NCBI GenBank assembly: GCA_963664015.2
Contig: CAXXLF010000002.1
Span: forward strand, 768,001 to 832,000
Origin: Candidatus Binatia bacterium
GTDB taxonomy: Bacteria; Desulfobacterota; Binatia; UBA9968; CAXXLF01
DNA: 64,000 bases
Direction: 5' to 3'
Shown here in pieces: positions 30,076 through 48,918 of the stretch. A program made the translations under genes and the position numbers. Below the pieces are notes generated by a model. It worked only from the letters and a program-made list of their open reading frames with translations. It was not told where the DNA came from and ran no database searches. How positions within the stretch are numbered: position 1 is the stretch's first letter; each line of letters opens with the position of its first letter.

Positions 30076-30092
30076 GAAGGAGTGGAAGCGCA

Positions 30093-31013: not shown

Positions 31014-31138
31014 GTGGCATTAAACCAAACGGAGTCACCCATGAGGATGGACTTGCTCCGAGGTGGTTTTCCTCGATATAAGAGAATCGCGCCAAAAACT
31101 CTCTGCTCCCTAGAATAGGGTCTTCGAGGTAATCCGTT

Positions 31139-32302: not shown

Positions 32303-32529
32303 AAAAGCAACAGGACTTCTTATCGAAGACATTGCCATGTTACGGCTGGGCTAGCCCCTGCAACCCCCCCCTCCAAAACATCGGCGGCCCTTTGAGGAGA
32401 CAACGCATTTGGATAAGTTCGACAAGAATAATCTTCGCGACGTGCGAAAGTCTATCGAGAGCTACGGAAAGGGATAGGGTCGGCTGTAGGTGACGGACGT
32501 GGGATCTTAAGGCCCGCAGGATTTAAATT

Positions 32530-32971
32530 TCAAGATTGCCCCGTCAGGACGAGCTCTGTCTGTCGTATGATCTCAGTCGCGGTAGCACGATCATGGCGAA
32601 AGAAGCCGCGCCACCGTCCGCATGCGCGTACTCTTCCGTGTGACTCGATCCAATCGAACCTCGATCAACCGGTCAGTTGCCTTCCTCTCGATGATCTCAC
32701 CGCGGGTGGTTGTCTCATCACTACCCTGAACCCGAATGCCCATGCGTTTCAGCGCCACTATAGCGGCGCGGCGTACCCTCGGGAGCGGGGCCGTCAGGGT
32801 GCGGGACGCAACGCCGCTCAGGGAATAGCCCACCGCAGTCTCTCCGGCAACCCCAACGCTCGCCCCCAGCAGGGCGATGGCAATGGCGGCGCAGCCGTTC
32901 AGGCTTAGAAGCGCTACCATAGTTACAATTAAAATAACTCTTTGGATCCAGTGATAACGTTGTCTTGGCAT
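32530..32971 (-). pseudogene. DUF3568-like lipoprotein with C-terminal frameshift
   Basis: Lipobox LNGC; likely tail GFFRHDRATATEIIRQTELVL lies in another frame after about 32605. Confidence 0.6.
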
Positions 32972-33199
32972 CGGTCAACCGATTGGCCGAGATATCCCTC
33001 AAGCTGCCCTTAGGATGCCAAATTCATGCCAACATCCGAAATCGCTAAATAACCGCTAATAAATCAATAGGGTCCAGCCCATTAGGAGACGAGTCGTCCC
33101 AGCGATAGGAAATTATGCGTATAATTGAACAGTTGACGTGGCCCCTAAATTTGGGACCACGCCAGAGATCAGGAGGAATTGGGGTTCTTCAGATTCGAG

Positions 33200-34060
33200 C
33201 TATGAGCTAAAGAAGTCCTTCATCAGTTTCCCAACTACCTGGGGCTGGTCGTTCTGCACCTGGTGACCCGCCTGGGGGATGTAATGAAACTTGATGTTCG
33301 GCAGGAGCTTCTCCAACTGATGACCGAGATCTACAGGTGCAAAGTTGTCCTGCTCACCCCAGATAAACTGGGTAGGAATAGGCAACCTGGGCAGCAGATG
33401 GTTCATTTCATACTTGAAACGTAAATTCGGGTCATTTGTGAGGCGTTGCATCCCAGCGGCAAAGCTCTTTCGGGCCTCGGCGGCGCCCGGCCGGTTGGCG
33501 GCGTTGTTACGGAGTTCAACCAGCTCATCGGTCACGATGGATTTGTTGAACACCAATACCTCCAGCATACGCCGCATGGATTCCGGGGTCCCGTCGTACG
33601 CTTGCAGCGCACGCATACCGTCCGTGGGAGGAACTTTAAGTCCCATTGCAATAGAAATAGTAGCGCTAGCCACGAGCATGAGTTTGCGGACGCGTTCAGG
33701 ATGCTGGATAGCGTATTTGGCTGCAACCCAGGCTCCCTGCGAATTGCCCGACAAAAATATCTGGTCCAGACAAAGGTTATCGATAAAGGCCTCTAACTGG
33801 TCCACCCGTGTCTGAACGCCTTCGGAAGCCGGATAATAGGGATCCGTCTCTCCAAATCCGCCAACACTGTCAGGGGCATATACCTGATAATCACCGGCCA
33901 GCTCCTCAATGAGTTTCCCAAAGCCGGCCTCACCGGAAGATCCCGCACCGCCTCCGTGGCAAAGCACGACCGGTGGACCATTATGGCCCGCCTCCGAATA
34001 ATGGGTCTTGATATGCCCTGCCATGACGTATCTGGATCGGATTCTAGAATCAGACATCAT
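33200..34060 (-). CDS. Alpha/beta hydrolase, meta-cleavage product hydrolase-like (MhpC/BphD)
   Basis: HGGGAG, GNSQG nucleophile elbow, WGEQD, AGHQVQ. Confidence 0.82.
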   Translation of the reverse strand: MMSDSRIRSRYVMAGHIKTHYSEAGHNGPPVVLCHGGGAGSSGEAGFGKLIEELAGDYQVYAPDSVGGFGETDPYYPASEGVQTRVDQLEAFIDNLCLDQIFLSGNSQGAWVAAKYAIQHPERVRKLMLVASATISIAMGLKVPPTDGMRALQAYDGTPESMRRMLEVLVFNKSIVTDELVELRNNAANRPGAAEARKSFAAGMQRLTNDPNLRFKYEMNHLLPRLPIPTQFIWGEQDNFAPVDLGHQLEKLLPNIKFHYIPQAGHQVQNDQPQVVGKLMKDFFSS

Positions 34061-34527
34061 TTACCCCCTATTTCACCGTAGATATCAGTCAACAAGATTG
34101 CTTGTCTTCATGGTGTAAAAACAAGCTCTACATACTAATGGCAAATGCCCGCATGAGCGAATGGCTTCAAAGGCCAGACTGAATCTCTAATAAAGTCGGA
34201 AATCGATGTCAATAGGGACAGCGTTGGGTGTCCGATTACGAGTGGAATGGAACTAAATGTGCCGGTGCCCTTAGTCATACCATTGGCCGATAACCGTTCC
34301 CCTCTCGGGGAAAGCAGGATCATCGATGGTGGTCTGTCATCAGGTAGTTCGTCCCCGGTTTTGGCACGATGTTTTCCCCATCCATAATGTAATCTTTTGG
34401 AATGTCTACCCGTAGAGAATATGCATCCACGTGTCTCTGCCAAGCGGCTTGCCCCTTACGGAATACAATATCTTAGCTGCGCCTAACACCAAGACGAATC
34501 CTCCAAAATTACTTATCGCTCATCGGT

Positions 34528-35730
34528 TTACTTATTGTGCCAGTCCGACGGCCAGGCGCTGTGTCCTTCAGGCCGTAACTTCAGCCATACTTTTTTCCCC
34601 TCGTCCACGGGTTCGTGACGCTCTCCGTAGATCATGATGATCCCCTGCCCGTCGACCTCAACCTGGTACTCGATTCGTTCGCCGATAAACAGCGCAGCTA
34701 GCACCTTTCCTCCGATCATCCCCGAGGGCGCCTCAGACGCCGCGGCAGGGAGGATCTCTGTATCTTCGGGTCGGACCGCCATAAAAACGGACTCGCCGGC
34801 CTGAAGCCCACCGGGATTGTAATTGCGCCCAAAGACAACGCAGTCCGGCGCACCGTCGACAGCGATGGCCATTTGCCCCGAGGGGTTGCTGCTCTGTACT
34901 TTACCCTGGAACAACAGGGTCCGGCCGACAAAGTCCCGCACGAATTCGTTGGCGGGCTCTTCGTAGAGCATACGTGGATTACCCTGCTGCTGCACGACAC
35001 CGAAATTCATCAGCGCAATGCGATTGGACATACTGAGCGCCTCGATCTGGTCGTGGGTGACAAACAGCACAGCAATGTTGAGCCGTTTTTGCAGAAGCTT
35101 CACCTCTAGGCGCATCTGCTCGCGGAGCTTGGCATCCAGGTTGCTAAAGGGTTCATCCAGCAGCAACACCCGAGGCTCGGTCACCAGCGCCCGTGCCAGG
35201 GCCACCCGCTGTTGCTGCCCGCCGCTCAGCAGCGGTCCCGGGCGTTTCTCAAATCCCTCCATACCGACCAGCTCCAGGACCCGGGCCACGCGATCACCGA
35301 TTTCCCGCCGCGGAAATTTACGTGACTTGAGCGGGAACATGACGTTTTCCTCGACTGACATGTGGGGCCAAATGGCATAGGATTGGAACACCATTCCCAC
35401 GTTCCGCTTGTCTGGTGGGAGGCATGTTCGGTCCGAGGTCATGACGACAACACGGTCGCCAAAAAAGATATTGCCCGCATCGGGGATCTCGAGGCCCGCC
35501 ACCATACGCAGCGTAGTACTCTTACCGCACCCGCTTGGACCCAGCAACGTCATAACCTCGCCGTCATAAACATCCAGAGAGAGGTCCTGTACCGCCGCCT
35601 GGGATGCCCCGGGATAGGTCTTCCATAGCCCCTCCAGTCGCACGGCAATCCCGGCCTCACCACGGTCTTCCAGTCCTCCGCCGGGGGTTGCCGACACAGG
35701 CACTTCAGGTGTTGAGAAATTCTTTGACAT
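34528..35730 (-). CDS. ABC importer ATPase (FbpC/PotA type) with TOBE domain; no permease adjacent
   Basis: GPSGCGKS, LSGGQQQRVALARAL, LLDEPFSNLD, VTHDQ. Confidence 0.92.
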   Translation of the reverse strand: MSKNFSTPEVPVSATPGGGLEDRGEAGIAVRLEGLWKTYPGASQAAVQDLSLDVYDGEVMTLLGPSGCGKSTTLRMVAGLEIPDAGNIFFGDRVVVMTSDRTCLPPDKRNVGMVFQSYAIWPHMSVEENVMFPLKSRKFPRREIGDRVARVLELVGMEGFEKRPGPLLSGGQQQRVALARALVTEPRVLLLDEPFSNLDAKLREQMRLEVKLLQKRLNIAVLFVTHDQIEALSMSNRIALMNFGVVQQQGNPRMLYEEPANEFVRDFVGRTLLFQGKVQSSNPSGQMAIAVDGAPDCVVFGRNYNPGGLQAGESVFMAVRPEDTEILPAAASEAPSGMIGGKVLAALFIGERIEYQVEVDGQGIIMIYGERHEPVDEGKKVWLKLRPEGHSAWPSDWHNK

Positions 35731-35796
35731 GATGTTATTTGTCTCCTTGCTTGGTTTCGATAGATCCCCGCGACGGACCCTCCCGTGCGGCCGTAC

Positions 35797-35928
35797 TCAC
35801 CCGGCGCCCGCTGTGCCTGTAATCAGCAGGACCAACAGCCCGCTAAAAACAAACACCATCAGGTTTAAGATAATCCCCATGACCTTCAATTGCGCTAACG
35901 TGATTGAACCATATATATTCCTAAGCAT
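35797..35928 (-). pseudogene. 43-aa signal-peptide-like ORF, possibly the remnant of a substrate-binding protein gene
   Basis: MLRNIYGSITLAQLKVMGIILNLMVFVFSGLLVLLITGTAGAG* directly upstream of the ABC ATPase. Confidence 0.4.
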
Positions 35929-36204
35929 CTTGTATTCCCCCTATCAATTCTTTAATTATGTCCGCTCCTTATGAGAGAACTAGAAAGGAATGAAGCCTCC
36001 ATAAGTATTTACTCTCTTGGTCTTCTCCGAAAGCAGTTAAAAACAAAAACGCCAGCTCACCCCGGCGAATGTTTACAAAGGATAGCTGGTTTAAATTCCT
36101 CTTATGTATATCCCTCCAATACTCATGGGGGGCTCCATTAGGCCTCTAATTGATGCAAGGGCCTTACCAGCGCTGGCTGAGGCGCCTAAGGTTGGTTGTG
36201 TGGA

Positions 36205-36282
36205 CACATATCATATAGGGAGTAGGTGTCAACTCCGCCGGGTGGGTGAAAATCTTGACTTCCCCAGAACTTCATATTACTA
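36205..36282. promoter_or_regulatory. Divergent sigma70-like promoters
   Basis: Minus strand TTGACA...TGaTATGT; plus strand TTGACT-N17-TACTAA. Confidence 0.45.
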
Positions 36283-36310
36283 AAGACAATGAAAGGGAGG
36301 TGTCCGTAAA

Positions 36311-37135
36311 ATGGCACTCCAGGAAACAAATCAAGAAAAACGATTGAGCCGGGAAGAGTGTTGGGAACTGGTTAACGAGTCTGTCAATGCGGCATTGAAG
36401 CAAGCCTTTGAACAGATCTTTACCCACCCTTTCACCCAGGAACTCAAGGATGGAACATTACCGATGGAGTGCATCCGGGGCTGGCTCCTGAACACGTATG
36501 CCTGGTCCCTTGAAATTAATATGTCGCTTCCCTACCGGTACTACCTCTTCAATCACATGCTCAATCAGAGACCAGACCTCCTGGAGCTCCTGGCAGACCG
36601 CTATGCGGACGAGTTCGTCACCCCCGTTCGAGGCGGGCATCAACGCACGCTGGACGCCTTCGGTCAGGCCATCGGCCTGGACAGAAAAACACTCCACGAA
36701 TACAAGCCCCTGGCGGCCATGAGAAGCATGCTGGATTCCACCGTCTGGGCGCTGGAAGTCAACTTGGATTTCGGCATTGGAAACACCACCGAGGAATGGT
36801 TCGGCAAGTGGTGTTGGATCTGGTACCAGAGTTTGACCAAGAACTATGGCCTCAGCGACAATGGTGCCTACTACTTCCGGCTCCATTCTGAAGCCGACAA
36901 CTTCGGTGAGCACGAGGGCGGAGAAGTGATCGGTCACGAGGTCATGGGTCATGCGGAGGGGAATCGGTATATCACCGTGCGCATGATCGAGGACGGTTTC
37001 GTAAAACCGGACGAGATCAAAGGGCTCGTCTTGCGTTCCAGCAGCGTAGAGCGTTACCTGAGTTTTCTCGATGCCGTCTATTACACCTACCATCCGGCCA
37101 AAAAGGTCGGCGAGGTTGAACAGCTCCTTCGTTAG
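36311..37135 (+). CDS. Heme-oxygenase-like (TenA/PqqC/CADD) helical protein, probable diiron oxidase
   Basis: HPFTQELKDG, DEF...GGH, YFRLHSEAD...HAE. Confidence 0.7.
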   Translation: MALQETNQEKRLSREECWELVNESVNAALKQAFEQIFTHPFTQELKDGTLPMECIRGWLLNTYAWSLEINMSLPYRYYLFNHMLNQRPDLLELLADRYADEFVTPVRGGHQRTLDAFGQAIGLDRKTLHEYKPLAAMRSMLDSTVWALEVNLDFGIGNTTEEWFGKWCWIWYQSLTKNYGLSDNGAYYFRLHSEADNFGEHEGGEVIGHEVMGHAEGNRYITVRMIEDGFVKPDEIKGLVLRSSSVERYLSFLDAVYYTYHPAKKVGEVEQLLR

Positions 37136-37254
37136 ATCCGATCGTTTTTAGTCGCCCCTTGACATACCGCTTTGGCCGGAGCTAGCTTCGCGCTTCAGCT
37201 TTTATCGGGTTTCTGACTAAAAGTTCTTATTCCAATTACGACCAGGAGGCCGCC

Positions 37255-37788
37255 ATGGAGGCTAAAGGTATCATTTCCGACGCGTTCGGTAGGATCAGTG
37301 AATCTCTTCACAAGGCATTATCCGACCTCAACGTGAAAGAACTCCACCGGGAACCGAACCCGCCCATCGGTTGGCTGGCCTGGCGCTTGACCCGGTCTGA
37401 CGACAGCCAGCTCTCGCGTTTGGCAGGGCTAGAGCAGACCTGGATAGCGGAAGGCTGGCACTCCCGCTTTAACTTACCGCCAAATCCTTCCGATTTCGGC
37501 CCCGGTCTCTCCCACACTCGCGAGCAGGTCGCTGCCTTTCGGGCTCCCGATGCCAAAACCCTGTTGGATTACTATGACAGGGTCATGGAGCGGTGTCGGC
37601 CCTACCTGGAGGCCCTGACGCCTCAAGAACTTGACCGCGTACTCAACGAGCCCCGTTTCCAGCCACTACCATCCGTCGCGATCCGCCTCGTGAGCATCCT
37701 GCATTCGGACACGCAAATCAGTGGGCAGATCGGCTATCTACGCAGCTTGCACCGTATTGGTGGTTGGTTTCCTAGAGAAGGCGCCTGA
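37255..37788 (+). CDS. DinB/YfiT-family protein
   Basis: PIGWLAWRL, W...GW..RF.LP, GQIGYLR. Confidence 0.75.
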   Translation: MEAKGIISDAFGRISESLHKALSDLNVKELHREPNPPIGWLAWRLTRSDDSQLSRLAGLEQTWIAEGWHSRFNLPPNPSDFGPGLSHTREQVAAFRAPDAKTLLDYYDRVMERCRPYLEALTPQELDRVLNEPRFQPLPSVAIRLVSILHSDTQISGQIGYLRSLHRIGGWFPREGA

Positions 37789-37843
37789 GCTGGAGTCCCC
37801 CAAGTAAAAAGAATCTCTGTTACGGAATCCTGAAAAATCCCCA

Positions 37844-37910
37844 GGGCCACGCTTCTAAAATAATGTGGCCCCTTTTCTGCTGGCTCTCTTTCGTTGACGT
37901 CTTTAAAACT
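37844..37910. mobile_element. att-like junction A (most degenerate)
   Basis: Hairpin GGGCCACGCTTCTAAAATAATGTGGCCC, then TGGCTCTCTTTCGTTGACGTCTTTAAAACT at 37881. Confidence 0.6.
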
Positions 37911-38302
37911 CTCCTGCTGAGGCCACCTCCGGGAATTTGTCAATCCGGATTCGCCCCGGAGCGGCTCTGGGATTGGCTTTGCTCGGTGTTTTGCTACCAG
38001 GACTCAATGAATGAGCTATTTAAACGCGGCTTGCGGGCCGTTAGAAAGAAAACGGCGGCCCGTTGTGGACCGCCGCATGATGAACAACCAATATACGCAA
38101 CTAGGTACAACAACAGCTTGGATAGGTTCGCAGAGAATACTCTAAGTGGCTACCCAAGCGGTTTTTTGTCACACGTGTCACCTTTTCCGTATCCATCAGA
38201 GTCCTTCGGAGTTTGAAGACCAATAACGCGTAGAACGTTTTTCCCTTCGACTGGGAAGGCTTCCATGGTTTCAGCTTGAACGAAGATGGACGATTCTGCA
38301 AT

Positions 38303-38535
38303 TCAGAAGGCCGTGAGACCGAGCCAGCCTCCCCAAGCGATGAGTAGTAGGCCAGTTCCTCTTCCGAACGCGACACCTGCGGGCATCATTTTTTCTGCGA
38401 GAACGAACAACGCGAGGCCAATGATCCAAATCAGGTTCATTACGCCCCCATAGAACATGAGGGCCATTAGAAACCAACAACAGCCCAAGCAGAATACGCC
38501 GTGCTCAATGCCCATCCTGAACGCCTCCCCGACAC
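38303..38535 (-). pseudogene. DUF2182-like membrane protein, C-terminal fragment
   Basis: GIEHGVFCLGCCWFLMALMFYGGVMNLIW...AEK. Confidence 0.75.
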
Positions 38536-39070
38536 CAGGGCGCCTGGTCCGGAATCTAGCCCAATGAAATTCTATTACGACAACCCCAAACTCGGCCCGG
38601 ATTTCTTAAAGCGCCTCTTTGGCGAAACGGATATGACCTTTTACCGGGATTTTCGTAGCGGGACGGACTGGCTGTCCCGAGGTAGGATTGCCGTATGCTT
38701 TTTGCAGTGGTATAAGCAGAGCCAGGAGCCAGGGGCTTCCAGTGGACCAGTTTGGAACCATGAAAGAAGGTGCGGCCCTTGTTTCCTTTCATGGTAGTTT
38801 AGCCCTCGTAAATAAAGCTCCCCACCCAAACGCGGCCAAGGTCTTCATCAACTGTTTTCTCTCCCGGGAGGGGGCAGATTGCCCTGCAGAAGGCGTTAGC
38901 TAATTTAGGGGATGACCCTCCGAATTCCCTACGCATCGAAATCCCAAAGGACTCTGGTCCACTCATAAGGCGCAGGATGAAGCGGGGAACGTATATAGAT
39001 CTGGAATCCGGCGGAGGAGTCGATAACAAGCCTCCCTTGAGGATCTTAAATGATATCCTGGTAAAGATGA
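38530..39070 (+). pseudogene. ABC substrate-binding protein, frameshifted C-terminal fragment
   Basis: KLGPDFLKRLF...DWLSRG; ALVNKAPHPNAAKVFIN.FLSREG; NSLRIEIPKD. Confidence 0.7.
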
Positions 39071-39208
39071 ATAAGAGATAACGGTCCGGTCGAATTTGTC
39101 AGCCACGTATCAACGGAGATGGAGTAACACCGGTCGGCGACAAACATCCTAAGGGTGGACAAGCGAGACCTCGGGTAATCCCGATACCTCGAAGTGGAGG
39201 GGAAGCAT

Positions 39209-40381
39209 ATGGAGCGTAAAAATTCCGAAGGAACCCAGGCACAGTTTAAATACCAACAGTTCATAGAAGGCGAGGGCATACCCATTCATAGGGGGATCTC
39301 GGGGGTCGATGACGTTACCGCACTTCCGCGCCGACCCTGGGCTCGAACAGGCGGCCTGGGAACCTTCATCGAACTGACGAGCACCTTCCAATCGGAGCGC
39401 GGCATGTTCGTGTGTGAGATTCCCGGCGGCAAAACACTGGAAGTTCAGCACCACCTTTACGAACAATTGACGCTCATCCTGGAGGGTCGAGGAGCCACCG
39501 AGATCTGGCAAGAGAATGGGCCCAAGCAAATGTTCGAGTGGGGGCCAGGAAGCCTTTTCGCTCCACCGAAAAACACCTACTACCGGCTACACAACGGTGG
39601 ACCGGAACCCGTGGTTTTTTTCGCGATCACCACCGCACCGAGGATCATAAACGGTTTAAACGAGGTCGATTTCGTCTTCAACTGCAAGCATAACTTCACA
39701 GATCTTTACAATGGCCAGGAGGATTATTTCAACCAGACGCAAGATCGCGTTACAGGAGGACGTTACAATACCACCACCTGGTACACGAATTTCATTAGTG
39801 ATGTGAATCGGGAGAACGTAGACGCCCACGAGCAAAAGGTGGCAGGCGGTCAGCTTACAGGCTACCGGATGGCCGGACAGTTCCCAACGGGCCATATTTC
39901 CGAATGGCCGATGGGCAGATACCACAAGGCCCATTACCACCGCCCCGGCGCCGTCCTCGTGGGCCTTAAAGGTAAAGGCTACGTCAACCTGTGGCCCAAG
40001 GAGTTGGGAATCCACCCATGGCAGGACGGACACGGGGACAAGGTCGTCCTGGTCCAATGGGGAGCGAACAGCATTTACAGCCCTCCGGACGGCTGGTTCC
40101 ACCAGCACATGAGCACGGGCAAGGTGCCCGCGCGCCATGTGGCATGCTACGGCGGGACCAACCCGCTTGCATGGACTCGGGATCCAGATGGAAGCAACGT
40201 GATGATTCCTGTGCGCGAGGGAGGGCAGCTTATTGACTATGAAGACGAGGATCCGGAGGTCCGGCGGTACTTTACCGATGCCAACGGGAGAGAAGGCGTG
40301 AAATGCGCGATGCCACAGGTCAAGTTCCGTACCGATCCACTTCCTCCTGTAGCCCTCGCCAGACTCGGGATTCGGGGGTAG
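39209..40381 (+). CDS. Bicupin protein, paralogue of 764..1804
   Basis: FIEGEGIPIH, CEIP, QHHLYE, FEW, YHKAHYHRPGA, WFHQHM. Confidence 0.75.
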   Translation: MERKNSEGTQAQFKYQQFIEGEGIPIHRGISGVDDVTALPRRPWARTGGLGTFIELTSTFQSERGMFVCEIPGGKTLEVQHHLYEQLTLILEGRGATEIWQENGPKQMFEWGPGSLFAPPKNTYYRLHNGGPEPVVFFAITTAPRIINGLNEVDFVFNCKHNFTDLYNGQEDYFNQTQDRVTGGRYNTTTWYTNFISDVNRENVDAHEQKVAGGQLTGYRMAGQFPTGHISEWPMGRYHKAHYHRPGAVLVGLKGKGYVNLWPKELGIHPWQDGHGDKVVLVQWGANSIYSPPDGWFHQHMSTGKVPARHVACYGGTNPLAWTRDPDGSNVMIPVREGGQLIDYEDEDPEVRRYFTDANGREGVKCAMPQVKFRTDPLPPVALARLGIRG

Positions 40382-40567
40382 GTTCTCCGCTCACATGGAT
40401 AATTTCTTGGACTTCCTGTTGACCCTATCAAGGGAAACCACATGGGCGCGATCTTAGGAATCGGATGCAACCACACGCTGCAACAGGCCTCGGGCATGGA
40501 TCGTTCGAGATATTTGCTTATCCGTCCTCGTCTTTAGAAATAACTCCGCCCGAATGCCTCGTTTTTA

Positions 40568-41710
40568 TCACAATGGGGTTCTGGACCCGGGGAAGGTGAT
40601 AATTTGGTTTTTTTCCGGATCGCGGACAAGAGCCATAGGCTCGCCTCCTCGCTCGACAATCTCGATCTGCTCGCGAAGGAGCTTTCGATACATCGTGATT
40701 CCCTCGTCCGTTGCACCTAGATTCTCCTTGCTCCGATCGAAGATACTTCCCTGAGTTTCCCAGGCCATGAAGTCCTGAGCGTGGAACAAGGTCATATCGT
40801 ACTCGCCTTCCGGAGTCCTCAGGTCCCAACGGATGACACGCGGCTCTTCGGGTTGTTCCACAACCCGACCGTCTTTGGAGGGTTTGAACACCATGAGATA
40901 GATCTGGGTATGGGTGTCGTCAATCGGTATACGCCAGTGCAGTGCCTCGGAAGGTCCCTTTGGAATCCGGAGGATATTAGGGAAAACAAGAGGTGGACGT
41001 ATTTCAATCTCCGGCTTGTCTCCGCCATACCTGCAGCTTTTCGTGATCCCCCATTCACAGTGTTCCCAGTCGTATTCCTCTATGGGCCGGTAGTAATACT
41101 CTCCTCCACTAAGACCTTTTTCGTGAAAGGTATGGCCGTGAAGGTAGTAAGTATGAATCGTGTCCACCGAATTCTCCATGGCCTGCAGCCAGTTGCAGTT
41201 GAGCACCGGGTCCACTTCGATCAAACGCGTTCCATCTGTCCTGGCGATCACATCCCAACGGGGTAGCAGCGGTTTTTTCTCAGGGGGCCCCATGTAGACA
41301 AAGATCATTCCGCACAGGCTCTCCAACGGATAGCTTGGATGACATATCTTGTGTTTGAATTCCGGATTGTTCTCGAAGGGCTGCTCGATACATTTCCCTT
41401 GAGCATCGTATTTCCAACCATGGTAAGGACATCGAATCCCGTCATCTTCCACGAAACCATAGTATAAGGATGTCCCCCTGTGAGAGCAGTGTTCGGCAAC
41501 GCAACCGTACTGAACCGCCTTCTCACCATTCTCTGTCGGGAGGCGAAAGACGACCAGTTCTTCACCCATGATCTGAACACGTTTCTTGGGGTTCTCCTTG
41601 GTAAGATCACTGACCAGGCAGATCGGATGCCAATAACGGCGCAATAATCTACCGCTAGGTGTATCAGGACCAATGCGGGTCAACATTTCATTCACTTCTT
41701 GATTAAGCAT
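40568..41710 (-). CDS. Rieske non-heme iron oxygenase alpha subunit (intact)
   Basis: CSHRG...CPYHGW Rieske motif; NWLQAMENSVDTIHTYYLH; QDFMAWETQG. Confidence 0.92.
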   Translation of the reverse strand: MLNQEVNEMLTRIGPDTPSGRLLRRYWHPICLVSDLTKENPKKRVQIMGEELVVFRLPTENGEKAVQYGCVAEHCSHRGTSLYYGFVEDDGIRCPYHGWKYDAQGKCIEQPFENNPEFKHKICHPSYPLESLCGMIFVYMGPPEKKPLLPRWDVIARTDGTRLIEVDPVLNCNWLQAMENSVDTIHTYYLHGHTFHEKGLSGGEYYYRPIEEYDWEHCEWGITKSCRYGGDKPEIEIRPPLVFPNILRIPKGPSEALHWRIPIDDTHTQIYLMVFKPSKDGRVVEQPEEPRVIRWDLRTPEGEYDMTLFHAQDFMAWETQGSIFDRSKENLGATDEGITMYRKLLREQIEIVERGGEPMALVRDPEKNQIITFPGSRTPL

Positions 41711-42032
41711 GCCTCACCCTCCTCTCGTGCAAAACGCTTCTCTCATCACGTTTATATAAAAGACGCGATATTATACCAGCAGTAGAACAATGCCATAAAC
41801 CGGCGGGGATTTTCCCACTGTGCCAAGTGTTTGTCAAGCATCCCATTGATTGGGTGTGAGGCTGTGAACATTTGATAAATGCAACGACTCTAAAGTATCA
41901 GAGGAGACCATAGGCTGAAGGCCGCGTGTCCATTTTCCCAGCGCGCTTCCTCATGTCATCAGTCGAGGAAATCAAGGACAGCCATATATAGAGATAAGGG
42001 CAACTACCGTCAGTAGGCTTAGGCTTTTCAAT

Positions 42033-42362
42033 CTAAACAAAATCGACTTCGTTTTCAGCCAGTGTTTTATCTCGCCTCAATTTACGAAACTTTGCATCAC
42101 TCTGGCGCCATTCGTCATCACTCGCACGTAGCTCGGCCAACGCTTCATCGGGCTGGCGCTTCGTGCCACCATCATTCGGGCGCTCTTTACCATCATTCGG
42201 ACGTACCTCAGTCGACACCTTATCGAGCTGGCGCTTCGTGTTGGACTTACTCGCGGTGCTCTGGGTAGTCGGGGCACTCGGGGAGGTCGCGCTGGTAGAG
42301 CAAGCGACAGCCCCGATTAATAGGCCGAAAAGCACTAAAACATCAAGATTACGCATGATCAC
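42033..42362 (-). CDS. Hypothetical lipoprotein with short internal repeats
   Basis: Lipobox AVAC; TKRQ twice, RPNDG twice. Confidence 0.5.
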   Translation of the reverse strand: MIMRNLDVLVLFGLLIGAVACSTSATSPSAPTTQSTASKSNTKRQLDKVSTEVRPNDGKERPNDGGTKRQPDEALAELRASDDEWRQSDAKFRKLRRDKTLAENEVDFV

Positions 42363-42680
42363 TCAGGTCCAATGATAGATAGACCCTAAGGAGAAATCAA
42401 TTGTGATCCATGCCCTACCTTGTAAGTAAACGATATCGGAACCGAGGGTTTTATGTCAATCCGAGTTGGGATTTCGTGAAACCTGAACAATCCCCTGTAA
42501 GACAATAGGTTATAGGTAACAAGAGGGGATTCCATTTGGCCTAAAAGACGGAGAATTGACATGTTTTTGATGGGATTACTGGTAGTGTTGAGCATGTTCT
42601 TCGCCCCGGAGGCAATCCGTAAGAATCACCATCAAAACTTTCACAATTACAGTAAATGTGGATGAAATACTGCGGCAGAT

Positions 42681-42750
42681 AAAAGGCCGTGCTTCAAAAG
42701 AAACACGGCCTTTTTAGAACTGGCTCCCCTTCGTGGACGCATTTCGAACC
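42681..42750. mobile_element. att-like junction B
   Basis: AAAAGGCCGTGCTTCAAAAGAAACACGGCCTTTT, then TGGCTCCCCTTCGTGGACGCATTTCGAACC; the 9-bp core equals the tRNA-Asn 3' end. Confidence 0.75.
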
Positions 42751-43010
42751 CTATTGCTCAGGCCAACGCCTGAGATAGAAGAGCTCTTCCGCGATCTTAG
42801 AAAATCAGGTTAGATAGTTCCAAACGAACAGTAAGGGCGGCCCAGGAGGGTCGGGAAATTGTTAAATCTAGTTAGACCGGAGCTGCTCTGGGCTTAAATT
42901 TGCTCGCTATTGGACCCCAGGATCAATTGTCCCGTTAATTAAATGCGTCTTACGGCCTAGCGACAATCCGTGAATCTCACCGAGATAGACAACAACCACA
43001 TCTTCAGGCG

Positions 43011-44762
43011 CTAATCCCCGGCCCTTTCAATTCTTTCTGGAGGGGGTTTGAAAACGTCATATCGGCCGAGGATCTCCACTCTCATGCTAGGGTTGTGAAA
43101 ATTTGAATCCAGCTCAGCCTCATTTTTGATGGTAAGCAGATGCTCAATCTTGGCCTCCATATCTTTACCCGAGGCCATATTCGCTTCGCCTAAGTCTTCG
43201 TCAACATCATAGGAACGGACCCAATCGAAACTGTAATAGGCGTCCACAAATTGAGGGTCAAGATCCATGGCTCTCGTGGCAAGGGTAATGCCTTCTCTGA
43301 ACTTCCCGCCCCAATTGGCCAGCATGGCCAGGTTCATAAGGGCATCAGCGTGGGCTTCGCGATCCACCTGTGACATCTTGATTTTCTCGATCGACTCCAT
43401 TCCTCCTTCTGTCATTGGACGAGGCGCACGAACCAGTCCGCTTTTGATAATTTCATCCATTATTTCAAGTGCCAGTATCTTGTGGCCTTCTATGGTCGGA
43501 TGGACATGGTCCAAAAACCACTCCTCCCCTGTTATACCTTCGGGGGACCTCTCCGTAATGATCGAATCAAAATCGACAACTGGGACATTCATCTCATGGC
43601 CAATATCATTGACCGAAGTACCCAAGGCAGATATCGCCCGTAATGGACATACATCCTCATCTATGGCTTTTCGGTAAGCCGCCTTTGCTTCTCCATATCT
43701 TCCCAAAGAAAAGAGGATGTCCCCTTTTAATGCGAAGGTATGAGCATACCGAGGGTCTAATATTTCAGCGTTCAATATATGAATAAGCGCTTCTTCAAAC
43801 TCTTTTTGCCGGACCAATTCCAGGGCCCATGCATAGTTTCGTATCCACTCCTCTAAAGCTGGCTTTCCTAAGTCATCTCTATGTTGTGATTTAAAGGGCG
43901 CTTCATGCCGCATTTTTGAAGCCGGGGTCACCAGAATAATCTTGGAATCAACCGATCGGGCAAGCCTGATGATTCTTGTCAGGTTAAATCTAAAATGAGC
44001 GACGACGTCCTTTTTGTGCTCCTCATCTCTTGTATAGTCGTGAGGTCCAACAGATTGGTCCAGGATCGGATTGACCTCTTTGGAAAGCTTGTGAACATAC
44101 CCTACTTTACCCTTTTCACTTGACCAATACCCGATAATATTATTCAAAAGGGAATAGATCCGTAACTTGGAGGCGAGGGTTCCAAGATCTCGTAGAACCA
44201 TTGGTAGCCCAAGTATTTTTGAATAGGTCCTTCGTTCCAGGAATTCATTATGCCCCGTGTAGACAACCACCAGGTCGGGTTCATATTGAATAAGCTCGTC
44301 CATGAGTAGCACAATCCGGTAGCTGGCATAACTGACGCCACCGGCGTTGATGACCTCCCATTGATGCTCCCGGTCTACGTAATTGAGAAAATCTTCAAGC
44401 CAGCTACAAAAAGAGGTACGGGGCGAGTACGGTCTTCCATAGATGGTGAATCCGCCTACACAAAAGACACGCAATGTATTTGCGGATTTCATCTTTGTGA
44501 ATGACTCATTAGGAAACAACTCAAGCTTTTTAGGGTGAGTAATCATAACGGGAATGTTCCCCCCGTTCTTGATGAAGACGGAGTCGGTGAAGAGCCTCTC
44601 CTGGGAGCTAAAACCGACAAACGGGTCCTGACTGCTTTCCCCTTTGGGAATATCAAAAATTGTCAAAACACCTTCCACGAGAAGAAAAAACAGCGAACAG
44701 GTAATGGCGCTAAAAGCAATGAGTTTGGGTTTTGATAGAGGATAGGGGTTTGTTGAATTCAT
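43011..44762 (-). CDS. SGNH/GDSL-like plus TPR membrane-anchored protein
   Basis: N-terminal TM, EVINAGGVSYAS, YTGHNEF, TPR helices, FLDHVHPT; block I reads GGFT, so the catalytic Ser may be lost. Confidence 0.75.
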   Translation of the reverse strand: MNSTNPYPLSKPKLIAFSAITCSLFFLLVEGVLTIFDIPKGESSQDPFVGFSSQERLFTDSVFIKNGGNIPVMITHPKKLELFPNESFTKMKSANTLRVFCVGGFTIYGRPYSPRTSFCSWLEDFLNYVDREHQWEVINAGGVSYASYRIVLLMDELIQYEPDLVVVYTGHNEFLERRTYSKILGLPMVLRDLGTLASKLRIYSLLNNIIGYWSSEKGKVGYVHKLSKEVNPILDQSVGPHDYTRDEEHKKDVVAHFRFNLTRIIRLARSVDSKIILVTPASKMRHEAPFKSQHRDDLGKPALEEWIRNYAWALELVRQKEFEEALIHILNAEILDPRYAHTFALKGDILFSLGRYGEAKAAYRKAIDEDVCPLRAISALGTSVNDIGHEMNVPVVDFDSIITERSPEGITGEEWFLDHVHPTIEGHKILALEIMDEIIKSGLVRAPRPMTEGGMESIEKIKMSQVDREAHADALMNLAMLANWGGKFREGITLATRAMDLDPQFVDAYYSFDWVRSYDVDEDLGEANMASGKDMEAKIEHLLTIKNEAELDSNFHNPSMRVEILGRYDVFKPPPERIERAGD

Positions 44763-44791
44763 TGACTGAATCCTTGAAAGTAGTCGTTCAA

Positions 44792-44971
44792 TTAAAAAAG
44801 CGTATAGATAAATGGGGCTACAGCCGAACTTTGGGCGAAAATGACCAGCCCAGCGAAAAGCAAAAGGATCAAAATCATTGGCGTCAACCACCACCACTTG
44901 TGCTGCCAAAAGAACATAAGAAGTTCGCCCATGATACCCATGCGACTAGCTAAACTTTCAACAAACCGCAT
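44792..44971 (-). CDS. DUF5989/SxtK-like small membrane protein (59 aa)
   Basis: Below the ORF-track cutoff: ...FWQHKWWWLTPMILILLLFAGLVIFAQSSAVAPFIYTLF*. Confidence 0.85.
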   Translation of the reverse strand: MRFVESLASRMGIMGELLMFFWQHKWWWLTPMILILLLFAGLVIFAQSSAVAPFIYTLF

Positions 44972-44984
44972 GTACGTTTCCTCC

Positions 44985-46775
44985 TCAACTTAAGCCTTGA
45001 GGCTTTTCAATCACATATTCCCCCAGAGCTAGAATGTCCATTCCACTTTGGCTGAACGTCCGAAAAGCTTCCTGGGGCGTGTTGACAATCGGCTCGCCCT
45101 TCAGGTTGAAAGAGGTGTTTAGCACTATTGGAACGCCGGTAGCTTGTCCAAAGTTCTCGATCAGCCGGTAAAATTTCGGGTTCACTTCTTTCTGAACTGT
45201 CTGAAGCCTTCCTGTGCCATCCACGTGTGTGATGGCAGGGATGGCCTCCCGCTTTCCTTCCCTTACGTCCACCACATAGAGCATGAAGCGAGCTGGATAG
45301 TGCCTTGGCGCGTCGGGCAGGACAAAGTACTCCTCTGCACACTCAGCCAATACAGAGGGAGCAAAAGGACGGAATGGCTCGCGGAACTTGATCTTGACGT
45401 TAACGATATCCTTCATATCGGCACGCCTCGGATCGGCCAGAATGCTCCGATTCCCCAGCGCTCGAGGGCCCCATTCAAACCGATCCTGGAACCACCCTAC
45501 GACCTTTCCGGATTGAAGTTCTCCAACAATCCGCTCTATCAACTTCTCCTCACTGTCGAACCGCCGATAACGGATACCCTTCTCTTTCAGGAACTTTTCG
45601 ATCTCGCCAGGACCGTGCTCCTCTCCCCAGTAGGCATGCGACATAACGAACTTACGCGGCTTACCCAGAATGGCATGATGAGCATAGAGAGCTGCTCCGA
45701 TAGCCCCACCTCCGTCACCGGCTGAGAGCTGGATGTAGATTTGCTCGAAGGGGGTCTCTTCAAGAATTCGCGCGTTGGCTACGCTATTCAGAGCTACTCC
45801 ACCAGCCATACAAAGCCTCTTCACGCCAGTCTCCTCGTACACATTTCGTGCCATCCTGAGCAGAACATCCTCTGTCACAGCCTGAATACTTGCGGCAACA
45901 TCCGCATAATATTGATTTAACTTCCCCAGCTCTTCATAGTTCCCCGGCTTTTCGCCGAAGTACGAAGGATAGCCACCCGCCGGCGTGAAAAAAGGGGCTT
46001 TGGGATCTCTTGAGGGACCAAAAAGGGCCTCAAATTTTCCATTAAACGTATTCTCTGTGGAGTAATGAAAGGAAAAATAGTCCATGTTGATTTCAAAGCT
46101 GCCGTCACATGCCACCCGGATGAGTTTGTAAATTTTGTCTTGATATCTCGGCGTGCCAAAAGGGGCCATCCCCATAACCTTATATTCCCCTTCGTTTACC
46201 TCAAATCCCAGAAATGCCGTAAACGCGCTATAGAGAAGCCCTAGAGAATCGGGAAAACGAATCTCTTTGAGCAGTTTTAAATCCGTACCCTTCCCTAGTC
46301 CAAGGCTAGCCGTTGTCCACTCTCCTACTCCATCCACTGTCAGTATGGCTGCGTCCTCAAAGGGGGAACAGAAAAAAGAGCTGGCCGCGTGGGAGAGGTG
46401 GTGTTCGCTGAAGAGAATCCTGGACGGTGGCACTCTGAGCCGTGTTCGAATGAGATGCTTGATCCAGAGCTTATCTCCTAGCCAGCTGGTCATCGCCTGT
46501 CTGAAAAGGCGATGGGATCGGGGAAAGGTTTGCATGCTGGTTAAGATGAGTCGTTCAAACTTAATAAAAAGCTTCTCGAAAAAGGCTACATAGTCCAGTT
46601 CTTCCGCCCGGATTCCACCAACTCCTAGACAGAAATCAATGGCATGCTGAGGGAACTCATAGTCGTGCTTCTTGCGTGTGAACCGCTCCTCCTCGGCTGC
46701 AGCAATCAGCTGCCCGTCGCGTAGTAACGCGGCTGCGGCATCGTGGAAGTAACAGGAGATGCCTAAGATATCCAT
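44985..46775 (-). CDS. NodU/CmcH-family O-carbamoyltransferase
   Basis: ILGISCYFHDAAA, EEERFTRKKH, EHHLSHAAS, DGVGE, EYKVMG, GPRALGNRSILADP, NTSFN. Confidence 0.95.
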   Translation of the reverse strand: MDILGISCYFHDAAAALLRDGQLIAAAEEERFTRKKHDYEFPQHAIDFCLGVGGIRAEELDYVAFFEKLFIKFERLILTSMQTFPRSHRLFRQAMTSWLGDKLWIKHLIRTRLRVPPSRILFSEHHLSHAASSFFCSPFEDAAILTVDGVGEWTTASLGLGKGTDLKLLKEIRFPDSLGLLYSAFTAFLGFEVNEGEYKVMGMAPFGTPRYQDKIYKLIRVACDGSFEINMDYFSFHYSTENTFNGKFEALFGPSRDPKAPFFTPAGGYPSYFGEKPGNYEELGKLNQYYADVAASIQAVTEDVLLRMARNVYEETGVKRLCMAGGVALNSVANARILEETPFEQIYIQLSAGDGGGAIGAALYAHHAILGKPRKFVMSHAYWGEEHGPGEIEKFLKEKGIRYRRFDSEEKLIERIVGELQSGKVVGWFQDRFEWGPRALGNRSILADPRRADMKDIVNVKIKFREPFRPFAPSVLAECAEEYFVLPDAPRHYPARFMLYVVDVREGKREAIPAITHVDGTGRLQTVQKEVNPKFYRLIENFGQATGVPIVLNTSFNLKGEPIVNTPQEAFRTFSQSGMDILALGEYVIEKPQGLS

Positions 46776-47036
46776 CAGAATTGCCTACCAGCGCGCTCTT
46801 CCGGGGTATCCTTGTTTTCCCCCCTGACCCGCCACCCCCCTTGGGCTACCATTCTTGATGGCTAGAGGGTCACAAAGCCAGCGTACTGCTAGGGCGAATG
46901 GCGCAAAAACAACGTAGTAGAAAAAGCTTAAAAGCGCTTGCGCCTGGAGGTCGCCTATCTTCTTCCCGACTCGCCTCCACCACTGCCAGAAGCTCCCCAC
47001 CGCCCCGGCTATGCTACTCCCTTCTCGTTCAGCCAT
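46775..47036 (-). pseudogene. SxtJ-like membrane protein, apparent frameshift in a G run
   Basis: WQWWRRVGKKIG...FYYVVFAPFAL...DPL; typical ...RQF* tail overlapping the next ATG lies in another frame after about 46840. Confidence 0.65.
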
Positions 47037-47442
47037 GAATGATTTCCATTTGTTCAGAAGTGAAAATAATAAGGAGCTCTTTTTGAGGCAAGGCCAACAA
47101 GAACCCAAGAATTCTCCTAACGCCACTTTTCATAACTATTAAGCCGGAACACCCCTGGCAAAAAATCGCCAAAGCTGTTGGGTTTCTTTTACTCTCTCAC
47201 GGAAGCCGATTTCTGGTCCCCTTGTTTAGTTTTCACTCTTCACTAGAAACTCTATAATAAATCGGCTGAGGTTACTATGAGACCCCCAATTATCACACTG
47301 GAAAGCGTTTGTCGATTTTCCCAAGGCTTCAATAACACTTCAATTATGCCCTTCAACGAGCAGACTCCATTCACCGGTTTCTTCCCTAGGGATTAGCTAG
47401 CTTGCTCGGCTTCACAATGGCAGGTGGAATGGTGGGACACCG

Positions 47443-47512
47443 AAAAAAAGGCCGCGCTTCCAAAGAAACGCAGCCTTCAATAACTGGCTTCCCTTTGTGG
47501 ACGGTTTTAGAA
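47443..47512. mobile_element. att-like junction C
   Basis: AAAGGCCGCGCTTCCAAAGAAACGCAGCCTT, then TGGCTTCCCTTTGTGGACGGTTTTAGAAC at 47485. Confidence 0.72.
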
Positions 47513-47868
47513 CTCTGTGTACCGTACCACCAGTCGGGATTGCAGAGCGTCTCGGAGAGCTTGGACAAGCCGGTCTTACATGCGGAGCAGACTGATCGAT
47601 CCGAAGGCTAACGATTAAAAGAGACTGCAGCCTATTAAAAACCAATACGAAATTGTAAGTCCACCTGGATCCAAATCCAACCGTAACCCCTTCAACGAGC
47701 CGCTTGAGAGCTTTCGCCCTTCTTAGAAGGCGACTACAGCTAAAATAGATTTTCCTATTAAATTCGTTCTCATCGGTGGGGCTCCGGCCCTTCTGAGCGA
47801 CACTGTAAAACACGTAACCACAGATATCGATATTGTGAATTCTCGACTTTCCCTACAATGTGGACTAC

Positions 47869-47890
47869 CATAGCTATTAGCATAGCTATG
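47869..47890. promoter_or_regulatory. Probable antitoxin operator
   Basis: CATAGCTATTAGCATAGCTATG: tandem near-palindromes just upstream of the RHH gene. Confidence 0.55.
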
Positions 47891-47905
47891 CCGAAAGGTG
47901 AAATT

Positions 47906-48139
47906 ATGAAGACGGTGCAAATGACGCTGGACGAGGATCTCGTTAAAGCAGTGGACAGGGCTGCTAAACGACTTGGCACCACTCGGTCGGGCTTCGCGCG
48001 GGACGCGCTCCGCTCGGCTCTTAAGCACGTGCACATTGCGGAATTGGAACGAAAACATCGCGAAGGGTACCAGCGCAAGCCAGTTAAGCCAGGGGAGTTC
48101 AGCAACTGGGAATTGGAACAGGCCTGGGCTGAGGAGTGA
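47906..48139 (+). CDS. Ribbon-helix-helix (CopG-like) antitoxin
   Basis: MKTVQMTLDEDLVKAVDRAAKRLGTTRS; overlaps the toxin start. Confidence 0.88.
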   Translation: MKTVQMTLDEDLVKAVDRAAKRLGTTRSGFARDALRSALKHVHIAELERKHREGYQRKPVKPGEFSNWELEQAWAEE

Positions 48140-48447
48140 AGAGAGGTGAGGTTAGGTGGTACAAGGTTTCCCGGCCTGACAAGCAGAGACCGATTCTGAT
48201 CCTCACGAGGGACTCCGCTCTCGAATACCTTGGGGAGGTTACTGTAGCTCCTATCACGTCAACAATCCGAGATATTCCCTCGGAAGTCTTGTTGAGCAAA
48301 GCAGATGGCATGCCTCGGGACTGCGCTGTGAACCTTGATCACATCCAGACCGTCTCAAAGACTAAAATTAGTTCCTTGATTACAACACTCAGTCCTAGGA
48401 AGATGCTTGAGCTGCGCTCAGCCCTCACCTTTGCCCTGGGCTTTTAG
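48136..48447 (+). CDS. PemK/MazF-family endoribonuclease toxin
   Basis: MKRGEVRW...KQRPILIL...VAPITST...VNLDHIQTV. Confidence 0.92.
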   Translation: MKRGEVRWYKVSRPDKQRPILILTRDSALEYLGEVTVAPITSTIRDIPSEVLLSKADGMPRDCAVNLDHIQTVSKTKISSLITTLSPRKMLELRSALTFALGF

Positions 48448-48593
48448 GAATCCATTCCTCGCTTGCAGAGTTGGAATAACTGATTGCTCAGCAATCGGTG
48501 CCAGGCTTCACCATCGGGAAAGTGTTAGCGAGCACGCCCGCTATGGCTCGCCCTCTCGGCGGTCTCGGAGGAGGGGATAGAATACTACGACAC

Positions 48594-48629
48594 AAAAAAG
48601 GGCCGCGCCTCTTAAGAAACGCGGCCCTT
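48594..48629 (-). terminator. Hairpin plus T run after tRNA-Asn (same motif as junctions A-C)
   Basis: Minus strand AAGGGCCGCGTTTCTTAAGAGGCGCGGCCCTTTTTT. Confidence 0.7.
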
Positions 48630-48636
48630 CCAACAC

Positions 48637-48712
48637 TGGCTCCCCGGGAGGGACTCGAACCCCCGACAAAGTGGTTAACAGCCACCTGCTCTACCAGCTG
48701 AGCTACCGGGGA
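48637..48712 (-). tRNA. tRNA-Asn(GTT)
   Basis: TCCCCGGTAGCTCAGCTGGTAGAGCAGGTGGCTGTTAACCACTTTGTCGGGGGTTCGAGTCCCTCCCGGGGAGCCA: cloverleaf with encoded CCA. Confidence 0.97.
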
Positions 48713-48918
48713 AAATTATACGGTCAAACTGGTGAGATCCCCGCTCATTACTGCTTCAGCTCAATCCTCCTGAGGCGGACCCGCCTCGGGCGGGAACTGA
48801 TCAGCGTAAGACTGAACCGGGTGTACTTAGATTATATATCAATGTATCAGCAGATTTTCCACCCATGAGCGGGAGCGAAGAAGGAGCCTAGATACCGACA
48901 CCTTACGTCTCCACTTTC

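Follow-up and report, generated by a model that had tools for sequence, protein, structure and literature searches.

A probable relic array of serine-recombinase islands beside the tRNA-Asn gene of a Candidatus Binatia bacterium

In the staphylococcal cassette chromosome (SCC), composite islands at rlmH/orfX are moved by the recombinases CcrAB or CcrC, and the tandem arrays include recombinase-less pseudo-SCC elements. In integrons, promoter-less or short cassettes gather at one site, the newest beside the anchor. SSV-type archaeal integrases carry their attachment (att) site within the gene, so that integration into a tRNA gene splits the integrase gene near its 5' end, and the integration-dependent immunity of mycobacteriophages offers a further analogy. 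The closest described system comes from Dehalococcoides, where tandem islands lie downstream of ssrA, the tmRNA gene, of which there is one copy, and are bounded by a 20-bp repeat of its 3' end (McMurdie et al. 2011, PMC3146451). Here we describe a locus of the same kind, likened to the Dehalococcoides islands by architecture and not by DsiB sequence (PMC3146451). It lies beside the tRNA-Asn gene of a Candidatus Binatia bacterium with a genome of 3.5 Mb, in a window of 64,000 nucleotides (positions 768,001-832,000 of contig CAXXLF010000002.1). We suggest that it is probably a relic tandem array of three islands, inserted successively at tRNA-Asn by CcrB/DsiB-like large serine recombinases (LSRs) whose genes are now gone.

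Several features of the Dehalococcoides islands are relevant here (PMC3146451). The gene dsiB, encoding a CcrB-like serine recombinase of 540 residues, adjoins the target, and the repeat is embedded in its 3' end. Some islands have no integration module and are discussed in terms of cis-mobilizable elements and accretion. The authors suggest that dsiB may be fully functional only on a circular element or beside an island that carries the requisite 3' fragment, and they liken the islands to SCC.

In the window, a hairpin followed by a 9-base core and a shared arm is observed at 37881, 42721 and 47485, and hairpin and core only at 48637, in the tRNA-Asn gene. All four cores have one orientation and span 10.8 kb. 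The arm is called the LSR tail below, for reasons that follow. The features are:

48637..48712, minus strand: tRNA-Asn(GTT), the sole tRNA gene in the window (ARAGORN and Rfam)
48637-48645: core in the tRNA, reading TGGCTCCCC on the plus strand; the last 9 bases of tRNA-Asn
48600..48627, minus strand: terminator hairpin directly 3' of tRNA-Asn (nhmmer E 7e-9)
47485..47595, plus strand: junction 3, core TGGCTTCCC and a 36-codon LSR tail without a start codon, then a stop (WLPFVDGFRTLCTVPPVGIAERLGELGQAGLTCGAD)
47416..47484, plus strand: in-frame stretch left of junction 3 (NGRWNGGTPKKRPRFQRNAAFNN)
42721..42813, plus strand: junction 2, core TGGCTCCCC and an intact 30-codon LSR tail, then a stop (WLPFVDAFRTLLLRPTPEIEELFRDLRKSG)
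42685..42710: junction 2 hairpin, GGCCGTG...CACGGCC, with A and T runs on either side
42830..42928, plus strand: box2, a conserved stretch 3' of the junction 2 tail, with a terminator-like hairpin at 42877-42891
37881..38023, plus strand: junction 1, core TGGCTCTCT and a decayed tail of about 20 codons (WLSFVDVFKTLLLRPPPG..)
37844..37872: junction 1 hairpin, GGGCCACG...TGTGGCCC

The core TGGCTCCCC is the reverse complement of the tRNA-Asn 3' end, GGGGAGCCA, and this is the single tRNA-Asn gene among the 50 tRNA genes of the genome. As in Dehalococcoides, short direct repeats of the target's 3' end bound tandem islands. The junction-to-junction spacings are 1152, 4764 and 4840 bp, delimiting segments C, B and A with increasing distance from the tRNA. 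The hairpin at 48600-48627 is homologous to those at the three junctions and, read on the plus strand, runs in frame into the residues W-L-P (..ETRPFQH, then WLP). The tails at 42721 and 37881 differ in subtype from that at 47485 (RTLC..., without box2). Box2 is common to the junctions at 42721 and 37881, to the Candidatus Binatia relative G004 and to metagenome contig L140, and we read it as the probable 3' untranslated region (3'UTR) and terminator of the recombinase gene. At junction 1 the tail is fused to box2 (37929-38023; hairpin 37955-37971) by an internal deletion of ~85 bases. The in-frame stretch left of junction 3 contains a hairpin (47447-47478) that is terminator-like on the minus strand; the stretch, whose similarity is weak, may be what is left of the LSR 3' end of the preceding island. 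An initial annotation of the window, made from its letters alone, had described integrated segments lying in tandem from the tRNA-Asn 3' end, with these segment lengths and with four related strings at 37881, 42721, 47485 and 48637, the junction farthest from the tRNA (37881) being the most decayed. This description is correct throughout, and a G+C hairpin precedes each core.

The junctions are specific to this locus. The 9-mer GGGGAGCCA alone is not significant, with roughly 45-50 copies among the matches listed for the genome. The strict arm motif, searched across 3.5 Mb, matches three times, at the three junctions. An nhmmer profile was built from the three window copies and two copies from relatives, so that the scores at its own sites are high by construction; at E < 0.1 it finds the three sites and the tRNA 3' end with its hairpin (E 7e-9), and nothing else in the genome. 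Because both searches match only these sites, the junctions are not a plain terminator scattered genome-wide, an outcome that the initial annotation had named as contrary to its proposal. Integration of the Xer/dif type, by integrative mobile elements exploiting Xer (IMEX), was considered because such elements are integrase-less and tandem. This candidate was rejected: no dif-like 28-bp palindrome was seen by eye, and the locus is not at a GC-skew extreme (the extremes on C2 lie at 0.12 and 1.77 Mb, the window at 0.77-0.83 Mb).

What is the shared arm? The initial annotation regarded it as a "non-tRNA" end of the elements. We compared copies from the relatives G001 and G004, four distant genomes and 17 metagenome stretches. 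All copies read W-L-P-F-V-D-x-[FY]-R-T-[LFV]-...-P-x-P-[ED]... and then a stop, on the strand opposite the tRNA; the window's tails are start-less frames of 30-36 codons of the form WLPFVDxFRTL..P.PE...stop. The mean entropy at codon positions 1, 2 and 3 is 0.87, 0.81 and 1.19 (22 codons, 25 distinct copies); the first 10 codons served to select the copies, and the signal that counts lies beyond them. Proline codons 15 and 17 use CCA, CCG, CCC and CCT, leucine is encoded by TTA, CTG or CTC, and arginine codons also change synonymously. The stop falls 28-39 codons after the W in 18 of the 22 complete copies. Since third positions vary most, these codons change synonymously and the position of the stop is conserved, the arm is protein-coding on the plus strand. 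No conserved start codon is found in the tail copies, and the frame at 42721 is closed by a stop two codons upstream of the W.

These data bear on whether the repeats could instead be copies of a minus-strand small RNA or cis-regulatory RNA, or a free-standing micro-protein gene on the plus strand. The element is conserved across phyla and is always followed by a minus-strand hairpin, with a TTGACA-like box upstream in some copies, as such a reading would have it. Yet no Rfam family matches the junctions at the gathering threshold in the window or its relatives, or at E ≤ 10 across 37600-48800, and the codon-position pattern, the synonymous changes and the conserved stop show a protein-coding origin. 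A free-standing gene is further contradicted by the missing start codon, by the upstream stop at 42721 and by a frame that, in 9 of 150 ORFs, runs on from LSR sequence without a break (see below). We consider this explanation highly improbable; the small-RNA or tRNA-like reading of the minus strand was dropped on the plus-strand coding pattern.

To identify the protein, a profile of 17 tails was compared with 1.84 billion representative proteins, of which 605 cluster representatives scored E ≤ 1e-3. Of these 605, the best 150 are open reading frames (ORFs) of 35-267 aa, with 1-234 residues upstream of the tail; the distance from the W to the ORF end has a median of 33 residues and is 28-40 in 114 of their 151 matches. 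Nine of the 150 carry an LSR C-terminal region in frame directly upstream of the tail (E ≤ 1e-3), P0027 and P0062 being examples, and five more do so weakly. The first ~115 residues of P0027 are 57-83% identical to seven recombinases of 449-539 aa, full-length or nearly so, and 50% identical to an eighth. Of nine relatives of P0027 compared, seven (P0151, P0153 and P0155-P0159) have the domains PF00239, PF07508 and PF13408 (Resolvase, Recombinase and zinc ribbon), the domain set of a large serine recombinase, the class to which the protein with the tail belongs. The best NCBIfam match of the family is CcrB, at 92 bits against a cut-off of 900, and therefore these LSRs are not Ccr proteins.

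The full-length LSRs run through ...YRKPFDILAEGLSSANWLP, end in ...RKPFDILAEGLSSANWLP and then diverge from each other. Four of them (P0153, P0156, P0157 and P0158) continue as antisense tRNA; the four readings are WLPGPDSNQRPSG (then a stop), WLPGQDSNLRPIG..., WLPGQESNLRPIG (then a stop) and WLGREDSNPHRQ.... This divergence into antisense tRNA directly after W-L-P places the recombination site within the LSR gene itself, at these three codons. What follows when the gene is uninterrupted by integration is the WLPFVD... tail, the natural C-terminus of a CcrB/DsiB-like LSR with its att site about 33 codons before the stop. In the window, the tails begin right at the core and comprise 30, 36 and, in the decayed copy, about 20 codons, as expected for a recombinase 3' fragment beyond the repeat at the far boundary of an island. 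The arm of the initial annotation would accordingly be renamed: it is, by this reading of the sequence, a detached LSR C-terminal coding end with its 3'UTR and terminator.

Other searches with the tail were less productive. Word-index protein searches with a 44-aa tail gave one candidate among longer proteins and one among proteins of similar length, and were uninformative. A 20-base degenerate pattern matched 93 stretches of genome contigs, with about 78 expected by chance, and only 6-7 of the loci searched are real by nhmmer; a pattern scan of viral contigs gave 0 matches. A tblastn search of plasmids and phages with P0027 gave no match.

Intact or decayed LSR genes adjoin tRNA-Asn in other genomes. 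In G063, an intact LSR ORF of 524 aa ends ...KYDIWLPE inside a convergent tRNA-Asn(GTT) gene, and the DNA before W-L-P, read on the tRNA strand, is an 8-bp hairpin followed by six T directly after tRNA-Asn. G017, from the order to which the window's genome belongs, has an LSR remnant with a frameshift that runs into a tRNA gene whose anticodon, by eye, is GTT (Asn). In the Verrucomicrobial genome G061, the 3' remnant of an LSR gene covers the tRNA-Asn hairpin as far as the end of the contig, and the tRNA-Asn gene is 95% identical to that of the window. These observations support the idea that the LSR family targets tRNA-Asn and supplies its terminator hairpin. The hairpins at the junctions and at the tRNA would be homologous because the end of the LSR gene encodes the tRNA terminator on its opposite strand. 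That incoming DNA brings a terminator hairpin for the tRNA had been proposed in the initial annotation, and G063 and G061 bear this out for the element family.

The same loci speak to the classical alternative, in which tyrosine integrases built islands at the tRNA and the repeats are tRNA-Asn 3' fragments displaced by decayed phage- or P4-like islands. The 3' ends of tRNA genes are the usual targets of such islands, and displaced fragments mark their ends, as stated in the Islander abstract; the genome has 12 tyrosine-recombinase matches (PF00589). None of the 12 lies in the window, the identity with tRNA-Asn is only 9 bases where a longer match is typical of Islander-type islands, the rest of the repeat reads as LSR coding sequence, and the ORFs that adjoin tRNA-Asn in G063, G017 and G061 are LSRs, not tyrosine integrases. 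No island of the window holds a tyrosine integrase, and we regard this origin as very nearly negligible in probability. An integron in the strict sense, with an IntI integrase, an attI site and attC-bounded cassettes, is not indicated either: the window has no tyrosine recombinase (IntI), and its junctions are fragments of an LSR gene.

Comparison of tRNA-Asn loci shows that whole segments, with such junctions at their borders, distinguish the relatives, as the initial annotation had anticipated. Tails are found in 5 of 151 sampled genomes of the class, and the window's genome has the most, with three. In G004, the order is Mut7-C, tRNA-Asn, a 3.3-kb segment (GNAT and M20 peptidase), one junction with an intact tail and a GDSL/TPR gene. 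In L140, tRNA-Asn is followed by a cupin/Rieske segment, a junction, a PEP-mutase/aminotransferase segment, a second junction and a PLD-like gene; at the outer junction (a), an out-of-frame LSR remnant, RKPFDVLA, lies upstream of the hairpin. G114 has a one-ORF segment of 2.3 kb between tRNA-Asn and a tail. In G122, AbiEi/AbiEii lies between two tails 1.9 kb apart, on a contig stretch that does not include tRNA-Asn, and an intact LSR of the family is present on another contig. The cupin/Rieske segment is farthest from the tRNA in the window and nearest to it in L140; its tRNA-proximal part contains an alpha/beta hydrolase and a solute-binding protein in L140 and two small ORFs in the window.

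How does this locus compare with the described systems? Relative to the Dehalococcoides islands (PMC3146451), the target is tRNA-Asn and not tmRNA, and the core has 9 bases and not 20. The DsiA, ParB or Mom module of those islands is not seen here. The C-terminal part of the recombinase is divergent in Dehalococcoides, whereas here the 3' fragment is conserved as protein across several phyla; and here the recombinase ORF contains the terminator hairpin of the target. A system of this kind is already published (PMC3146451), and what differs is the tRNA-Asn target, the spread over several phyla, the conserved 3' fragment and the terminator within the ORF. The likeness to SCC consists in LSRs, in insertion into the 3' end of a conserved gene that stays functional, and in recombinase-less members; here the target is a tRNA, the recombinase gene itself contains the att site and no second, CcrA-like recombinase is seen. 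SSV-type integrases are tyrosine recombinases of archaeal viruses and plasmids, whereas here a bacterial serine recombinase would lose its last ~33 residues. Integrons differ in recombinase class, and the junctions here are recombinase-gene fragments. Among the matches listed in a literature search, no paper described an attP inside a serine recombinase gene.

Based on these observations, we propose the following model. The att site would lie inside the LSR gene at W-L-P, about 33 codons before the stop, and the stretch before W-L-P would encode the tRNA terminator hairpin on its opposite strand, as in two other genomes. Integration would split the gene: the recombinase body would stay beside the tRNA, reading into it, and the last 30-36 codons with the 3'UTR and terminator would move to the island's far boundary. 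Each junction in the window would be such a far boundary, composed of hairpin, core and detached tail. A new island would insert at the tRNA and push the older ones outward, in the order A (37881), B (42721), C (47485); an inner junction would join the recombinase 3' end of the older island, with its hairpin, to the tail of the newer one. The outermost tail is the most decayed and the tail at 47485 is of the other subtype, which fits this order of arrival. The recombinase genes would later have been deleted down to the hairpin; our guess is that selection for a terminator keeps deletions from passing it. As the genome has no LSR of the family, only a recombinase arriving in trans could still move the array, which would otherwise be fixed.

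If the model is right, the puzzle of an "integrase-less" array has a simple answer, as its neutral-looking shared end would be a piece of the integrase gene. The signature, a hairpin, CTGGCTCCCC and a WLPFVD.[FY]RT tail, would mark the integration scars of one serine-integrase family, represented by at least 605 protein clusters in several phyla. It would also give direct sequence support to an idea left open in Dehalococcoides, that of recombinases complete only off the chromosome. Serine integrases are genome-engineering tools, and a family whose target is conserved in very distant bacteria, with possible self-inactivation, could be useful. The locus in this genome would itself be a fossil.

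A recombinase was sought in the window's genome. An LSR adjoining its target and reading into it was not found in the window or the genome, and a recombinase body adjoining the window's tRNA, as in a split gene, was not found. A tblastn search with six full-length LSRs and four LSR-tail fragments gave tails only, and a genome search with P0153 gave nothing at E ≤ 1e-20. The initial annotation had proposed a recombinase acting in trans on an integron-like platform; with no LSR of this family found, an active platform is unsupported. Pfam family searches gave two matches, both outside the window: C2:938479-938613 encodes a 45-residue Recombinase-domain fragment (PF07508, 23.9 bits) and C2:1018300-1018728 is a small resolvase gene with an internal TAA; neither has an adjoining junction motif.

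Several points weigh against the proposed relic array. The three segments contain no LSR gene or convincing remnant of an LSR body, the similarity at 47416-47484 being weak. An intact full-length LSR with the tail attached was not seen, all of the best 150 of the 605 tail ORFs having at most 267 aa. Three independent deletions, each ending at a hairpin, are not obviously likely, and elements that never had a recombinase would be simpler. To our knowledge, canonical LSRs do not integrate into attR-type sites, and they are not known, as a rule, to reuse an occupied site; islands inserting repeatedly at a tRNA already occupied would, we argue by analogy, need relaxed site choice. In G004 the GDSL gene is found beyond the last junction, and here inside the array, and therefore the histories of the segments are not simple.

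Could the segments be cassettes that were never autonomous, with a minimal att site (hairpin, core and tail) and moved in trans by an LSR? Such a platform, which is the form that the initial annotation had preferred, would parallel integrons or recombinase-less SCC elements. All recombinase-less segments examined end cleanly at the hairpin (three in the window, one in G004, two in L140 and one in G114), small segments carry only a toxin-antitoxin pair (RHH-MazF in the window, AbiEi/AbiEii in G122), and the cupin/Rieske segment occupies different array positions in the window and L140. Recombinase-less "cis-mobilizable" islands in such arrays are also discussed in the Dehalococcoides paper (PMC3146451). 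Against this, the genome has no LSR of the family, and LSR 3' remnants of variable length occur beside tails elsewhere (9 of 150 ORFs, L140 junction (a) and the G017 pseudogene), as expected if resident genes decayed. The cupin/Rieske block also differs between the window and L140 at its tRNA-proximal end and is therefore not a cassette with fixed ends. We hold the cassette explanation to be unlikely, at roughly one chance in several. The initial annotation had itself named integrase remnants as the finding that would speak for ordinary decayed islands. Because the shared arm is the LSR C-terminus, a recombinase remnant lies at every junction, with further upstream bits at L140 and possibly at 47416-47484, and these remnants favor decayed autonomous islands built by accretion.

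A more speculative extension, which we consider doubtful, is that the tail is a built-in switch of a multi-phylum serine integrase family. Integration would cut off the tail and lock the island, and the recombinase-less segments would be cassettes excised or shuffled by an incoming full-length enzyme. The enzyme would be full-length only across a circular element or a neighboring island's tail, and the new terminator may make an occupied site look empty. Such a switch would be the serine-recombinase counterpart of an integron, anchored at tRNA-Asn.

The array is also present, without change, in public contigs from a second study: over 38743-44990 and 46664-47947, X6 shows 0 differences. Only assembled Logan contigs were compared, which cannot show rare circles or empty sites and have no bearing on mobility. 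Among the joints listed (15 of 40), none connects the tRNA site with a junction. The match of one X2 contig ends at 42718, directly at a core, and for two X3 joints the best reading is that related strains have variant junctions.

The cargo of the relic array, by segment, is as follows:

47596..48599, plus strand: segment C, RHH antitoxin at 47858-48139 and PemK/MazF toxin at 48136-48447
42929..47415, minus strand: segment B, GDSL/TPR gene at 43011-44909, carbamoyltransferase at 44985-46775 and a 113-aa ORF at 46785-47126
38024..42684: segment A, small ORFs, cupin at 39194-40381, Rieske/LigXa-like oxygenase at 40568-41710 and two small ORFs

Pfam matches agree with the cargo named in the initial annotation (RHH-MazF, carbamoyltransferase, cupin and Rieske) and, over the ORFs tested in the three segments, with its statement that no integrase or transposase is present. 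In segment C, the two genes match RHH_1 (E 2.9e-6) and PemK_toxin (E 8.3e-17) and overlap by 4 bases; with its adjacent, overlapping small genes, the pair has the layout of a putative MazEF-like type II toxin-antitoxin system. In L149 (G122:C59), with tails at about 7920 and 9823, the type IV toxin-antitoxin pair AbiEi and AbiEii is the sole cargo, a parallel to RHH-MazF, and addiction modules seem to be what the small islands of this family carry.

The GC content of the segments is 0.52, 0.49 (segment B) and 0.52, compared with 0.54 in the flanks. The window's 38531-41851 is 82-88% identical to the tRNA-Asn-adjoining segment of L140. The GDSL/TPR gene (43003-44769) shares 88% DNA and 83% protein identity with that of G004, which belongs to a different genus, and has a GC content of 0.46 versus 0.54. 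The conserved flanking genes Mut7-C, TenA and DinB share about 70% DNA identity between the window and G004; the difference from 88% suggests recent horizontal exchange of the GDSL gene. Around the tRNA-Asn locus, many paralogous Rieske/LigXa-like oxygenase and cupin genes are observed (window 28930-41710 and L016, L018, L029 and L030), and the region looks like a hot spot for genes of aromatic-compound oxygenases. In L109, L128, L133 and L151, a tail junction adjoins a xanthine-dehydrogenase-type molybdopterin gene with a shared hairpin. Three of these are Verrucomicrobia-like contigs, and one is binned with G021, of the window's order; the G021 contig may be a binning contaminant.

In relatives, the target itself can be interrupted. 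A group I intron (Rfam RF00028, 78-95 bits) lies in the anticodon loop of tRNA-Asn(GTT), between positions 35 and 36, at these loci:

L016:13268-13534: G004
L022:785-1105: G003
L025:1221-1492: G002, second locus
L140:1-217: metagenome contig

The window's tRNA-Asn and the main copy of G002 have no such intron. The C-terminal extension of P0156 reads the antisense of such an intron, and therefore intron-bearing tRNA-Asn genes occur elsewhere too. A limited literature search, including one preprint, found no mention of Asn among tRNA genes with group I introns. Part of the tRNA-Asn 5' end (positions 1-29 or 1-35) is duplicated in G004, the extra fragment being at L016:13632-13666, about 100 bases upstream of the intron-bearing tRNA-Asn gene.

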